A stretch of DNA of 32,000 nt from NCBI RefSeq assembly GCF_000007985.2, contig NC_002939.5:1710001-1742000 (forward strand), given 5' to 3'. The notes beneath the pieces are model-generated. The model was not told the origin of the DNA. It searched no databases and worked only from the letters and a program-made list of their open reading frames with translations. The position numbers were made by a program, and so were the translations under genes. Below, in pieces: positions 1,480 to 22,162 of this stretch. Within the stretch, counting starts at the first letter, position 1. Every line of letters starts with the position of its first letter. Source of the stretch: Geobacter sulfurreducens PCA. Lineage in GTDB: Bacteria > Desulfobacterota > Desulfuromonadia > Geobacterales > Geobacteraceae.

Positions 1480-1576
1480 ACTGCGGCTTCACTGGACGGT
1501 GGCAGCCGGAGGGGATGGCATTTGCAGGGAATGACGATAGACTTGATTGGAATGGCTAACTTCAAGGAGGAATGGC

Positions 1577-2401
1577 ATGGACACCATGGGACAGTATCAG
1601 CAGCTGGTTGTCACGTATGCAACGGTAATCGGGACAAAGATCATCGCCGCCATTTTGTTCTGGGTTGTCGGCCGCTGGCTGATCCACCTGGTGCAGCGGA
1701 TGCTTCATCAGGTTCTGGAGAAGCAGAAAGTCGATCCCAGTCTGATGCGGTATCTGGGCAACTTCCTCGGAGTGGCTCTGAACATCGTGCTGGTGGTGGC
1801 GATACTCGGCTACTTCGGGGTGCAGACCACCACCTTCGCCGCATTGGTGGCCGGCGTCGGCATTGCCATTGGCGCTGCCTGGGGTGGGCTCCTTTCCAAC
1901 CTGGCGGCCGGGGCGTTCCTTCTGGTGTTGCGCCCCTTCAAGGTGGGGGATTTCGTCACCGCCGGAGGCATCACCGGCACCGTAAACGAGATAGGCCTCT
2001 TCGTGACCGCCATCAATACCCCTGACAATGTCATGACCATGGTGGGCAACGCCAAAATCTTCAACGATACGATCCAGAACTTTACCATCAATGACTATCG
2101 CCGAGTGGAACTGAAGTGCCAGCTGGCCGGAAGCGCCGATCACGTGGCAGCGATGGCGCTGCTGCGCGAGAAGCTCGCGACGGTGCCGAATGTGCTGACA
2201 ACGCCTGCGGTCGATGTGGAGATCCTCGACTTCACCCTGGTGGGTCCGGTGCTCGCCGTGCGCCCTTACTGTCACAACGACCATTACTGGCAAGTCTATT
2301 TCGACGGCAACCGGACGATACGCGAAGCCCTCGCCGCGGCGGGATTCCCTGCTCCCATGCCGGCCCAGGTGGTGCTGGTCCAGAGTCCGCAGGGGGGATG
2401 A
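1577..2401 (+). CDS. Small-conductance mechanosensitive channel (MscS family)
   Basis: ATG 1577 is preceded by AAGGAGG (1564-1570). Three N-terminal TM segments are followed by the MscS beta-domain signature LRPFKVGDFVTAGGITGTVNEIGLFVTAINTPDNVMTMVGNAKI. Confidence 0.9.
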   Translation: MDTMGQYQQLVVTYATVIGTKIIAAILFWVVGRWLIHLVQRMLHQVLEKQKVDPSLMRYLGNFLGVALNIVLVVAILGYFGVQTTTFAALVAGVGIAIGAAWGGLLSNLAAGAFLLVLRPFKVGDFVTAGGITGTVNEIGLFVTAINTPDNVMTMVGNAKIFNDTIQNFTINDYRRVELKCQLAGSADHVAAMALLREKLATVPNVLTTPAVDVEILDFTLVGPVLAVRPYCHNDHYWQVYFDGNRTIREALAAAGFPAPMPAQVVLVQSPQGG

Positions 2402-2465
2402 CCGGTCATGGTGCCTGGATAGACCGTTCATTGCCTCGGTGCGATTACTGCCCGACCAGGCTGCC

Positions 2466-2493
2466 TTGCGATCCGGCAATCCATCGCTATACT
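2466..2493 (+). promoter_or_regulatory. Putative sigma70-type promoter of the selenopeptide/rSAM cluster
   Basis: TTGCGA (2466-2471), a 16-nt spacer, then TATACT (2488-2493), about 60 nt upstream of ATG 2552. The leader contains a small hairpin ATCGGT-GCA-ACCGAT (2513-2527). Confidence 0.5.
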
Positions 2494-2551
2494 CACTGAA
2501 GTGGTTGTGCTGGATCGGTGCAACCGATGTCTCTGGGCGAGGAGGTAGCGT

Positions 2552-2908
2552 ATGGGTAAGGACAGGATGAAGCAGCTTCTGGCGGGACTCGGCATTGCGT
2601 CGCTGGTTGCCGGTGCCGGAGCCATGGGGCCCGGGCCGGCGCTTGGTACGAGCGGCTGAGGCAAGTCTTCCGGCGCCGGGAGCGCCAAGGAGAAGGCGAA
2701 GAGTGGCTGAGGCGGATCGTCCGGCGCCGGTGGCGCCGCAAAGAAGGATGCCGCAGCAGCCGAAGAGGTAAAGAAGGACCCCGCAGCCCCAGATGTGAAG
2801 AAGGATGCCGCATCCGATACGGCGGCCGACAAAGCTAAGAAGAAGGCCAAGAAAAAGAAGGCCGACAAGCCTGCGGAAAAGAAGACGGAAACACCTGCCA
2901 AGCAGTGA
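2552..2908 (+). CDS. Putative selenocysteine-containing precursor peptide (118 codons, in-frame TGA at 2657-2659 and 2708-2710 read as Sec)
   Basis: GGAGG (2541-2545) lies 6 nt before ATG 2552. Translation: MGKDRMKQLLAGLGIASLVAGAGAMGPGPALGTSG-U-GKSSGAGSAKEKAKSG-U-GGSSGAGGAAKKDAAAAEEVKKDPAAPDVKKDAASDTAADKAKKKAKKKKADKPAEKKTETPAKQ. The frame stays open for 16 and then 65 codons after the two TGAs, with host-like codon bias (16 of 18 tail Lys codons are AAG). A SECIS-like hairpin follows each TGA. A radical SAM/SPASM gene lies immediately downstream. The ORF track misses it because of the TGAs. Confidence 0.6.
2668..2692 (+). promoter_or_regulatory. SECIS-like hairpin 1 (candidate Sec recoding signal)
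   Basis: The upper stem pairs GGCGC (2672-2676) with GCGCC (2682-2686) around the loop CGGGA. The lower stem pairs UUCC (2668-2671) with GGAG (2689-2692), leaving an AA bulge. The GGCGC arm starts 12 nt after UGA 2657-2659. Confidence 0.45.
2722..2738 (+). promoter_or_regulatory. SECIS-like hairpin 2 (candidate Sec recoding signal)
   Basis: CGGCGC(C) (2722-2728) pairs with (G)GCGCCG (2732-2738) around an apical GGU (2729-2731). The GGCGC arm again starts 12 nt after UGA 2708-2710. Confidence 0.45.
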
Positions 2909-2926
2909 GAGTGGCAGGGATATCAC

Positions 2927-2971
2927 CGGAAACGGCGGTTCGCATCCCGAGGGGGTGATCCGCCGTTTCCG
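2927..2971 (+). promoter_or_regulatory. Strong intercistronic hairpin between precursor and maturase genes
   Basis: A 12-bp perfect stem pairs CGGAAACGGCGG (2927-2938) with CCGCCGTTTCCG (2960-2971), with a 21-nt loop. It begins 19 nt after the precursor stop. No U-tract follows. Confidence 0.5.
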
Positions 2972-2984
2972 CTCTCTGGTTCCC

Positions 2985-4400
2985 ATGACTCCCGACAAGA
3001 CTCTCCTTTCCAGTGACGATCGCAAGAATCTGCGCGCTGCACGGCGCCGGGTTGCCGCCATGGCCGATGCTGTGCCCTGCGATAGGGCACGGATACAGGT
3101 GAATCCCCGCCTTGAACTTGTTGCCGTATCCGTCCGTGATACGCCCTCGGAGGGAGTCCCGATGGGGAGCGGCTTCTGGGTGGTCTGGCGCGATCCCTCC
3201 GACGGTGCGGTGCGCTCGGAAGAGGCCGGACCGGCCGACCTGCTCGCCCTGAAGCTCGTCCTGGAGGAGAGGGATGCGGAGGATGCCGCCCGCGAGGCCG
3301 GGGTTCCGGTGGGGAGGATCGACGACTGCCTGTGGGGGGCTGCTGCCCGGGGGCTGATCATCATGCCCCCTTCACGCCTTCGTCGGCCGCCGTCCTGGCC
3401 GGTATCGGCAGAGAGCGAGGACTTGCTCGCGGCTCGGGTATTTACCCTCCAGTGGCACATCACTCAGGAGTGCGACCTCCACTGCCTCCATTGCTATGAC
3501 CGGACCAGCCAAGGTGTCTTTTCACTGCTCCGGGGGGTGGAACTGCTAGACGATCTCCGCAGGTTCTGCGCTGAGCGGTTCGTGCGGGGCCAGGTCTCCT
3601 TTACCGGCGGGAATCCCTTCCTGCACGCGGAGTTCGCGGCATTGTACGGTGCCGCCCTGGATCGTGGCCTGTCCGCCGCAATACTGGGAAACCCGGTGTC
3701 GCGCGAACAGCTCTTGGGCATCGTTGCCCTGGGGCGGCCGGTCTATTACCAGGTGAGTCTCGAAGGGCTGGAGGCCCACAACGATCACATCCGGGGGGCG
3801 GGCCATTTCAGGAGAACCCTTGCCTTTCTCGACCTGCTCCGGGAGGAGGGGATTCCCTGCGAGGTCATGCTGACCCTCACCCGGGACAATATGGACCAGG
3901 TCCTTGCCTTGGGGGAGATCCTGCGGGGCCGCGCCGACGCCTTCAGTTTCAACCGGCTGGCCCCCTTTGGCGAGGGGGCATCCCTGGCGTTGCCAGAACC
4001 CGCGGCATACGAGGCGTTCTTTGATCGGTATGTGGCGGCCATGGAGGAAAACCCGGTCCTTGCCCTGAAGGACAATCTGCTCAATCTGGCGCTCTCCCTC
4101 CGGGGGCGCGTGCTGTTCGACGGTTGCGCCGGTTTCGGCTGCGGCGCCGCGTTTAACTTCCTTTCCGTGCTTGCCGACGGACAGGTCCACGCCTGCCGCA
4201 AGTTTCCGTCACCCATCGGGTCGGTCCACGGGTCCTCCCTGTCCGAGCGCTACGATTCCCCCGCAGCCGAGCGATATCGGTCACGGAGCCTGGCCTGCGA
4301 GGGCTGTCGGCTCTACTCCCGGTGCGGCGGCTGCCCGGCAGTAACTGCCGGCCTCGGGCTGGACCCTCTCCGTGACCGTGATCCCTTCTGTTTCCGGTAA
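2985..4400 (+). CDS. Radical SAM/SPASM domain peptide maturase with N-terminal extension
   Basis: CxxxCxxC cluster motif in WHITQECDLHCLHCYD. C-terminal SPASM-type cysteines occur in CAGFGCGAAFNFLSVLADGQVHACRKF and CEGCRLYSRCGGCPAV. About 150 aa precede the core, including a winged-helix/RRE-like stretch ADLLALKLVLEERDAEDAAREAGVPVGRIDDCLWGAAARGLII. The start is set at the first ATG after the precursor stop. RBS is poor, so the start is uncertain (GTG 2955 is an alternative). Confidence 0.85.
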   Translation: MTPDKTLLSSDDRKNLRAARRRVAAMADAVPCDRARIQVNPRLELVAVSVRDTPSEGVPMGSGFWVVWRDPSDGAVRSEEAGPADLLALKLVLEERDAEDAAREAGVPVGRIDDCLWGAAARGLIIMPPSRLRRPPSWPVSAESEDLLAARVFTLQWHITQECDLHCLHCYDRTSQGVFSLLRGVELLDDLRRFCAERFVRGQVSFTGGNPFLHAEFAALYGAALDRGLSAAILGNPVSREQLLGIVALGRPVYYQVSLEGLEAHNDHIRGAGHFRRTLAFLDLLREEGIPCEVMLTLTRDNMDQVLALGEILRGRADAFSFNRLAPFGEGASLALPEPAAYEAFFDRYVAAMEENPVLALKDNLLNLALSLRGRVLFDGCAGFGCGAAFNFLSVLADGQVHACRKFPSPIGSVHGSSLSERYDSPAAERYRSRSLACEGCRLYSRCGGCPAVTAGLGLDPLRDRDPFCFR

Positions 4401-21217: not shown

Positions 21218-21295
21218 CCCGGTGTGCCAATCATGCTAGTTTCACGTAAGAATTCAATGGGGCGACAGCCCCTTTCTTTTTTCCCGGGACCTACC

Positions 21296-22162
21296 ATGAT
21301 CCGCAGATTGGCTGTTGTCATCGCACTCATCATCCTCGCCGCCATCGTTGTGCACGAGCCGGAAATCACGGCCGAGCCGGCGGCTTCTCCTCTGGATCCG
21401 GCCAAGGAGGACCTGTCGCGGGTGGACTATCCGAGCCAACGAGATTTGGATTGGTATCCCCGCTTCATCAGGCCCAACGACTCGCTTGAGTCGCTCTTCG
21501 GCGACGATTGGGTCTACATCGCCCGCTTCAACCGCATCGACCGTCGCCACACGTATCCCGGCATGACCATTAAGGTGCCGCGGGACATGGCGGTCGCCCG
21601 CGCGTACACGCCGCTGCCGAAGGAGTACGAACCGGCCAAGCGCTATGCAAAATATATTCTGGTAAGCCTCACCGAGCAGTGGATCGGGGCCTATGAGCGG
21701 GGAACGCTGAAGTTTTCCATGCCGGCGGCAACCGGCAAAAAGGGAAACGAGACTCCGACGGGGCTTTTCCGGATTGATGCCCGGGATCGCACCCATACCT
21801 CATCGCTTTACCAGACTGATGACAACTCAGCCCAGTATCCCATGGACTATGCCATGAGGTTTTTCATCGATAAGCAGAACGTCGGGTACTGGATTCATGC
21901 CCGCGACCTGCCCGGAAAGCCGGCCTCCCACGGCTGCGTGGGGCTTTTCGACGAGCCTATGCAGAACAGGATGTACGGCATCCCCGCGCGACCCGTGCTG
22001 CATGATTCAAAGAAACTGTATGATTGGGCCGTCGGCGAGGCCGATCATGGCCCCGACAGCGGCACTATTGAGCTTATCGATGGGGGACCCGTCGTGGAGG
22101 TGATCGGCGAGAATCCGGTCTACCAGCCTGCTCCGCTGCGTCCCATGGTTGCTACGCGTTAG
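21296..22162 (+). CDS. L,D-transpeptidase (YkuD family) with LysM-like N-terminal region
   Basis: The signal anchor is MIRRLAVVIALIILAAIVV. The LysM-like segment is SLESLFGDDWVYIARFNRIDRRHTYPGMTIKVP. The catalytic motif is HARDLPGKPASHGCVGL. Start uncertain: no clear RBS, and the ORF is open from 21224. Confidence 0.85.
   Translation: MIRRLAVVIALIILAAIVVHEPEITAEPAASPLDPAKEDLSRVDYPSQRDLDWYPRFIRPNDSLESLFGDDWVYIARFNRIDRRHTYPGMTIKVPRDMAVARAYTPLPKEYEPAKRYAKYILVSLTEQWIGAYERGTLKFSMPAATGKKGNETPTGLFRIDARDRTHTSSLYQTDDNSAQYPMDYAMRFFIDKQNVGYWIHARDLPGKPASHGCVGLFDEPMQNRMYGIPARPVLHDSKKLYDWAVGEADHGPDSGTIELIDGGPVVEVIGENPVYQPAPLRPMVATR

Follow-up and report, generated by a model that had tools for sequence, protein, structure and literature searches.

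Two in-frame UGA codons of Geobacter sulfurreducens sbtA, each followed by its own SECIS hairpin, are very probably read as selenocysteine

A 32,000-nucleotide (nt) stretch of Geobacter sulfurreducens PCA (contig NC_002939.5, positions 1,710,001 to 1,742,000, forward strand; hereafter the window, whose own numbering is used throughout) contains sbtA, a precursor gene of the thio(seleno)oxazole class of ribosomally synthesized and post-translationally modified peptides (RiPPs), and the adjacent maturase gene sbtM. Two in-frame UGA codons of sbtA are very probably read as selenocysteine (Sec), each with its own adjacent Sec insertion sequence (SECIS), to give an SbtA precursor that is matured by SbtM. 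The anatomy of the gene is read directly from the window, and the hairpins that follow the UGAs are conserved and covary in orthologues. Binding of the elongation factor SelB to these hairpins and the insertion of Sec at the window sites would follow from established bacterial Sec decoding. The SbtA/SbtM system was reportedly treated by Haft and Basu in 2011 and, for the Geobacter lovleyi SbtM, by Lewis and colleagues in 2021.

The sbtA frame runs from the ATG at 2552 to position 2908 on the plus strand and comprises 118 codons, provided that the two in-frame TGAs are read through. The distance between these triplets, 2657–2659 (codon 36, context T-S-G-U-G) and 2708–2710 (codon 53, context K-S-G-U-G), is exactly 51 nt or 17 codons, and both are in frame with the start codon at 2552. 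Translated, the frame reads MGKDRMKQLLAGLGIASLVAGAGAMGPGPALGTSG-U-GKSSGAGSAKEKAKSG-U-GGSSGAGGAAKKD..., which continues into a Lys/Ala-rich tail and ends in ...TETPAKQ. The peptide is rich in Gly, Ala, and Ser and carries the SGUG motif twice, as TSG-U-G and KSG-U-G. Tandem Repeats Finder detects a 51-nt period at 2650–2747 (1.9 copies, 76% matches, score 119). The sequence and this repeat confirm the starting observation of the original prediction, two UGAs 51 nt apart within a nearly duplicated unit.

Family models were used to identify both genes. The SbtA peptide, with U replaced by C, matches NCBIfam TIGR04081 ('SbtA family thio(seleno)oxazole RiPP natural product precursor') at 38.2 bits over residues 1–27, above the cut-off of 30.5. 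The downstream open reading frame (ORF) matches TIGR04082 ('thio(seleno)oxazole modification radical SAM maturase SbtM') at 610.9 bits against a cut-off of 350. This gene (2985–4400, +) encodes a radical S-adenosylmethionine (SAM)/SPASM maturase with Radical_SAM and SPASM Pfam domains, and its closest database relative is 'SbtM [Geobacter sulfurreducens]' (NCBI) with 95% identity. An sbtA gene adjoins sbtM in all 30 sbtA-bearing loci examined. On these matches the gene at 2552–2908 is assigned as sbtA and its neighbor as sbtM. The full SbtA peptide has no match in a scan of the local Pfam copy. Automated gene calls in relatives (loci L032–L039) all end sbtA at the first UGA, giving a 35-residue product, and such 35-residue stubs of relatives carry the precomputed label PF27804 GSU1558_StbA-like.

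The arrangement corresponds to a system already in the literature. PMC9204691 recounts how Haft found sbtM to be adjoined by a peptide gene that has a stop codon with a SECIS immediately behind it. Newer annotations extend the peptide to at least two selenocysteines in a conserved GGUG-type motif, and SbtM turns a peptide Gly-Cys/SeCys unit into a thio(seleno)oxazole (PMC9204691). The reported biochemistry was performed with the G. lovleyi enzyme on minimal or short peptide substrates (PMC9204691). The family also has an entry, 'Selenobacteriocin, TIGR04081, motif SGUG, 2 Sec', among the bacterial selenoprotein families covered by a 2026 review (PMC13188914). The window system is of the same kind: both family models score above their cut-offs, the genes are adjacent, SGUG occurs twice, and the family is reported to have a SECIS directly behind the UGA (PMC9204691). 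In the clade to which the window belongs, the two Sec residues are separated by 17 codons and the tail is Lys-rich, lacking the C-terminal GSGUGGHK-type Sec of many other SbtA members.

Folding of the RNA places a hairpin after each UGA. In hairpin 1 (2666–2693, +), GGCGC (2672–2676) pairs with GCGCC (2682–2686) around the loop CGGGA (2677–2681). A lower stem is formed between UCUUC (2666–2670) and GGAGA (2689–2693), leaving C2671 and A2687-A2688 unpaired; because its register shifts in relatives, this lower stem is treated as optional and not conserved. In hairpin 2 (2722–2738, +), CGGCGCC (2722–2728) pairs with GGCGCCG (2732–2738) around the loop GGU (2729–2731). The upper stem is therefore 5 base pairs (bp) with a 5-nt loop at site 1 and 7 bp with a 3-nt loop at site 2. 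The spacer between the UGA and the GGCGC stem is 12 nt in both copies, or 11 nt in copy 2 when its extra C-G pair is included. Counted from the U of the UGA, the stem of hairpin 2 starts at nt 15 and its loop consists of G22, G23, and U24. The minimum free energy (MFE) is -15.0 kcal/mol at site 1 (-9.3 kcal/mol for the core hairpin alone) and -15.5 kcal/mol at site 2. These folds reproduce the two hairpins that had been proposed 12 nt after each UGA.

The hairpins were compared with published SECIS rules. The bacterial SECIS (bSECIS) consensus of the bSECISearch model of Zhang and Gladyshev, as presented in PMC13188914, has a loop of 3–9 nt with G in the first two loop positions, usually then followed by G/U, a stem of 4–16 bp, a UGA-to-apical-loop distance of 16–37 nt, and an MFE <= -7.5 kcal/mol. 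Both window sites lie within all four bSECIS constraints, the UGA and the loop being separated by 17 nt in hairpin 1 and by 18 nt in hairpin 2. Together with the covariance model matches described below, this agreement supports the proposed SECIS geometry with G/U in the loop. The bSECIS model is permissive, so that falling within its constraints is necessary and not sufficient, and the specific support comes from family-level comparison. The Escherichia coli fdhF SECIS is a 40-nt element with an essential upper stem-loop at nt 15–31, G23/U24 in the loop, and a bulged U17 (PMC8659212). The window hairpins likewise follow their UGAs directly within the ORF. In geometry, site 2 equals the fdhF upper stem-loop: the spacer is 11 nt, the stem begins at nt 15, and the loop contains G23 and U24. 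At site 1 the spacing agrees to within one nt and G23 is present, with G24 replacing U24. The window stems are perfect GC helices and have no sequence similarity to fdhF beyond the loop.

Orthologues were used to determine how regularly a hairpin accompanies a UGA. The set consisted of 31 loci of SbtM relatives (43–55% identity) and six closer loci (67–95%), and 30 sbtA genes were compared, including the window's own, each located upstream of sbtM. The orthologous precursors contain 2 to 5 in-frame UGAs in the contexts [G/S/A]-U-[G/S/T/N/A]. A hairpin was defined as a perfect stem of at least 5 bp with a 3–7-nt loop that starts 10–20 nt after the UGA. Such a hairpin is found at 65 of the 68 non-redundant UGA sites (96%); it is found at 5 of the 15 Cys-codon sites of the same motif and at 33% of all other codons in the same genes. 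Almost all of the 66 orthologue loops scored read N-G-[G/U]-N-N or G-[G/U]-N, and many orthologue sites have a 14–15-nt spacer. Two SECIS elements so close together had been thought unusual. Two are present in the window as predicted, but the arrangement is the norm for the SbtA family, in which 2 to 5 Sec sites each have their own hairpin.

Covariation in orthologues had been set as a test of the hairpins, and it is present. Alignment A1 contains 52 orthologue sites and leaves the window out. In the 7-bp stem, 85% of cells are paired in register, compared with 24–49% when the 3' partner is slid by 1–3 columns. The three inner pairs are paired in 52/52 sites, and six of the seven pairs are changed on both sides. 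Pair 30-40 is CG in 26 sites, UA in 25, and UG in 1, and pair 31-39 is GC in 39, AU in 10, and GU in 3. The covariation score of 0.527 compares with 0.250 in shuffles, none of which reaches it (0/500), and with 0.029–0.113 in the slid registers. The hairpins are conserved and covarying in orthologues.

An independent covariance model (R1) was built from A1, again with the window excluded, and was run unfiltered on both strands of the whole window. The top match in the 32 kb is site 2 (2702–2752, 49.6 bits, E = 1.9e-11), the second is site 1 (2651–2701, 31.0 bits, E = 9.5e-7), and the next scores 10 bits. A weak R1 match at 21485–21536 (-) (10 bits, E = 0.19) is antisense to a real plus-strand gene at 21224–22162 and was rejected. 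In 77 kb of non-training loci, all 16 R1 matches at E <= 0.01 are upstream of sbtM, and R1 matches in the six closer-relative loci coincide with mapped sbtA sites. R1 is thus a family-specific SECIS model that finds the sbtA Sec sites with zero false positives in about 110 kb.

Several observations weigh against Sec decoding at these UGAs. The single-sequence folding energies of the hairpins are no better than those of shuffles (z = -0.1 to -1.8). Folding energy against shuffles is not discriminating in this GC-rich context and was dropped in favor of comparative tests, and the case for hairpins beyond chance therefore rests on comparison. The hairpins do not vary among the close Geobacter relatives, and all of the covariation is contributed by more distant orthologues. 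The region (2300–3100, E <= 10) matches no Rfam family; the hits returned there at this threshold were chance-level snoRNA, miRNA, and snaR matches with no SECIS family among them, and they were rejected. There is no bulged U like E. coli U17, both window upper stems being uninterrupted, and because of this difference the window elements are considered, by analogy, to work like fdhF-type SECIS without being of that type in detail. The 32-kb window contains no selA, selB, selC, selD, or other selenium-utilization gene and no tRNA-Sec, and for this reason the decoding machinery was taken from the literature, where G. sulfurreducens is known to decode Sec and is credited with SelD, FdhA, and six further selenoproteins (PMC1794560). 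In vivo Sec incorporation into SbtA is not documented in the accessible literature, and the enzymology described in PMC9204691 concerns short peptides.

Alternatively, the hairpins could arise as a by-product of repeated Gly-Ala codons in a Gly/Ala/Ser peptide of low complexity, in which case they would have no function at the RNA level and any read-through would depend on something else. GGCGCC is self-complementary and encodes Gly-Ala, the peptide has the corresponding G/A/S-rich composition, and the single-sequence folding energies do not stand apart from those of shuffles. This explanation fails at the C-terminal Sec sites of orthologues (...GSGUGGKK-stop and ...KSGUS-stop), where a hairpin at equal spacing lies in untranslated RNA past the stop codon at >=14 sites, that is, at least 14. 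These untranslated hairpins share geometry and loop, as in UGA GGU GGU AAA AAA UAA GUGGUGC-CGUGA-GCACCAC. Within coding sequence the stems covary through different codons (GGC-ACA...GGU-GCC and GGU-GCC...AGC-ACC), so that GGCAC/GUGCC encodes G-T...G-A and GGUGC/GCACC encodes G-A...S-T. Most Cys-codon sites of the same motif are also without a hairpin.

Synonymous substitution bears on the same explanation. The window and seven close relatives were used to compare the ten hairpin codons with the rest of the first 64. Synonymous changes occur in 4/70 hairpin codons and 112/281 others (Fisher p = 4e-9), an approximately seven-fold suppression. All four hairpin changes are compatible with the structure, one being a G-C to G-U change and three falling at the third loop base. 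The 15 bases of hairpin 1 are invariant in the seven relatives, in which flanking synonymous sites vary. Synonymous sites in the hairpins are therefore frozen relative to the rest of the gene. The untranslated copies, the covariation through other codons, and the synonymous constraint together exclude Gly-Ala codons alone as the source of the hairpins, as far as such comparison can, and leave the by-product explanation with hardly any probability. The hairpins had also been predicted to constrain the encoded SSGAG(S/G)A residues, and the residues after Sec are fixed as S-G-A-G-(S/G)-A.

A second arrangement of the RNA has the two palindromic CCGGCGCCGG segments pairing across the 51-nt unit to form one long-range helix that couples or regulates both UGAs, in place of two hairpins. 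The MFE fold of 2640–2760 does pair 2670–2680 with 2720–2730 (-56.2 kcal/mol, z = -2.0). In most orthologues, however, the successive hairpins differ (GGCAC/GUGCC and then GGUGC/GCACC) and cannot cross-pair, and the local hairpins still form. The conserved, covarying feature is the local hairpin, and a translating ribosome would separate the two halves of a long-range helix. Such a helix is scarcely credible as the functional structure, and two local hairpins, one for each UGA, are preferred.

Conservation of the peptide beyond the UGAs distinguishes translation through these codons from termination. In relatives with 67–95% identical SbtM, in-frame conservation of the peptide extends beyond both UGAs as far as the shared ...PAKQ end. 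Substitutions relative to L039 at the first, second, and third codon positions number 0/0/5 between the UGAs and 9/8/23 after them, a third-position bias. The UGA of site 1 is kept in all seven close relatives, and site 2 aligns to Cys (UGC/UGU) in L038, L002, and L003. The SbtA of L013 is an all-Cys form. Two Cys sites keep the hairpin, L038 site 2 (1230–1280) and L011 residue 57 (around 3457), and R1 scores the L038 Cys site at 30.1 bits despite the missing UGA. The L038 and L011 hairpins look like fossil SECIS elements left by recent Sec-to-Cys conversion.

These data bear on the alternative that the first UGA is a true stop, that the product has 35 residues, and that the downstream repeat and hairpins are untranslated regulatory RNA, for example an attenuator, ahead of sbtM. 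Automated annotations call the 35-residue product in every relative, and a strong hairpin does exist before sbtM (2927–2971). Termination at the first UGA is at odds with the in-frame conservation of about 80 further codons with third-position bias and with the alternation between UGA and Cys codons at these positions in orthologues. Two Sec residues are given for the family in a published catalogue of selenoproteins (PMC13188914), and at least 2 SeCys are included in the peptide by newer annotations (PMC9204691). A peptide ending ...TSG would also lack the Gly-Cys/SeCys motif on which SbtM acts in vitro (PMC9204691). A true stop at the first UGA is accordingly rated very unlikely, and coding continues through both UGAs.

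By analogy with E. coli and Moorella, SelB would attach to each sbtA hairpin through its C-terminal domain and hand over Sec-tRNA(Sec) to the ribosome while the UGA, about 11 nt upstream, occupies the A site; SbtM would then oxidatively cyclize each Gly-Sec unit to a selenooxazole. A bacterial SECIS acts only on the UGA directly 5' of it. With the SECIS confined to the position immediately after its UGA, every Sec needs a private SECIS copy, and the 51-nt module, made up of SG-UGA-G, a spacer, a hairpin, and a linker, is therefore present twice. The location of each private SECIS within the ORF likewise accounts for the fixed S-G-A-G-(S/G)-A sequence after each Sec. Eukaryotic selenoprotein P resembles SbtA in having several Sec residues per polypeptide, but two 3'-untranslated-region SECIS elements serve its many UGAs at a distance (PMC8659212), whereas the SbtA UGAs each need their own adjacent in-ORF hairpin.

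The requirement for a private SECIS may also shape the product. Internal Sec-Sec spacing is never less than 15 codons in the loci examined, and the all-Cys L013 has spacings of 5–6 codons. The chances are about even that the recoding signal holds the modifiable residues of Sec-type SbtA no closer than about 15–17 codons and dictates G-(A/T)-(G/V)-(G/S)-(A/T) after each Sec, and that Cys lineages lose the hairpin, sometimes via fossils (L038, L011), and can then collapse the spacing to 5–6 codons (L013). In L013 (1429–1668, a Desulfobacteria metagenome-assembled genome) there are seven SCSG motifs, 5–6 codons apart and 12 in one case. A canonical SECIS-type hairpin was not seen at the L013 SCSG sites.

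Individual orthologues differ in the number and placement of their Sec codons. The SbtA of L012 (3312–3680, Malonomonas rubra DSM 5091) has five Sec codons. Three of these lie in near-identical 21-codon repeats (SGUGGQTEGAVSTDEEKKPA), each with its own GGUGC-CGUGA-GCACC hairpin, and the fifth is C-terminal with its hairpin 3' of the stop codon. The sbtA C-termini of L016, L020, L024, and L028 have UGAs 2–3 codons apart (SGUSU, SSUNU, SGUGGU, and SGUSGUS) and one downstream hairpin; the second UGA of these pairs is either a stop or a second Sec on the same hairpin. Locus L037 (617–1354) has two tandem sbtA paralogues ahead of one sbtM, and each paralogue has two Sec sites 17 codons apart.

The remaining features of the window sbtA gene were mapped as follows. 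A Shine-Dalgarno sequence, AGGAGG (2540–2545, +), is read directly in the sequence 6 nt before the ATG at 2552. A consensus scan places a promoter-like site (TTGCGA, 16 nt, TATACT) 5' of sbtA at 2466–2493 (+); the scan returned 1 site vs 0.2 expected in shuffles, which is weak evidence. The Lys/Ala-rich C-terminal tail contains a 27-nt (9-codon) repeat of KKDAAxxxV units at 2740–2812 (+; Tandem Repeats Finder, 2.5 copies), and the length of the tail differs among relatives through indels in this repeat region. The terminal UGA at 2906–2908 is TAA or TAG in L035, L039, L037a, and L038, and on account of these four relatives it is identified as the genuine stop of sbtA. A role for this third UGA as a Sec codon using the 2927–2971 hairpin was rejected on the same replacements; R1 gives no match there, and the frame beyond the UGA is not conserved. 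A 633-codon open frame on the minus strand (1562–3463) runs antisense to mscS, sbtA, and the start of sbtM and is taken for a GC-rich antisense artefact, not a gene.

A stable intergenic hairpin (2927–2971, +; MFE -40.4 kcal/mol, z = -3.07) with a 12-bp core and an inner stem lies 3' of the sbtA stop (2906) and 5' of the sbtM start (2985). A simple terminator scan did not call it, and R1 has no match to it. Similar hairpins follow sbtA in L033 and L037, in one case in L037 with a subsequent U-run. The 2927–2971 hairpin is probably an attenuator or RNA stabilizer that sets the precursor-to-maturase ratio. The public G. sulfurreducens SbtM is 529 residues long and starts inside the sbtA tail in another frame, with an Arg-rich N-terminus; the window stretch concerned is 2805–2984 (+). 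Because relatives' SbtM proteins are 463–479 residues long, the ATG at 2985 is the likelier start and the public start is probably over-extended.

The genes around the sbtA-sbtM pair vary among L032–L039, and because the flanking genes differ, the two-gene sbtA-sbtM cassette is identified by this comparison as the conserved unit. Neither a dedicated protease gene nor a transporter gene was seen immediately next to the cassette in L032–L039. The other window genes are housekeeping genes: MscS, PBP1A, HtpX, TerC, A-adding tRNA nucleotidyltransferase, bioABD, and nusA.

Published work already covers the family, its Sec content, its SGUG motif, and the occurrence of a SECIS, and no new question is opened by their recurrence here. 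The contribution is confirmatory: a family-wide SECIS consensus and evidence from untranslated copies, Cys variants, and synonymous-site constraint. The gene model is corrected to an SbtA of 118 residues with two Sec and an SbtM that probably starts at 2985. The recoding was spotted from sequence alone, and standard gene callers still miss it, calling a 35-residue stub in every relative examined. No radical-SAM RiPP system other than the one to which this locus belongs has been reported to act on selenocysteine, and the locus illustrates how an in-ORF bacterial SECIS forces a modular gene structure and dictates peptide sequence. If the relation between recoding signal and product is generally true, multi-Sec RiPP scaffolds would follow a design rule that has not been stated before, one set by SECIS geometry, and selenopeptide engineering could be guided by it.

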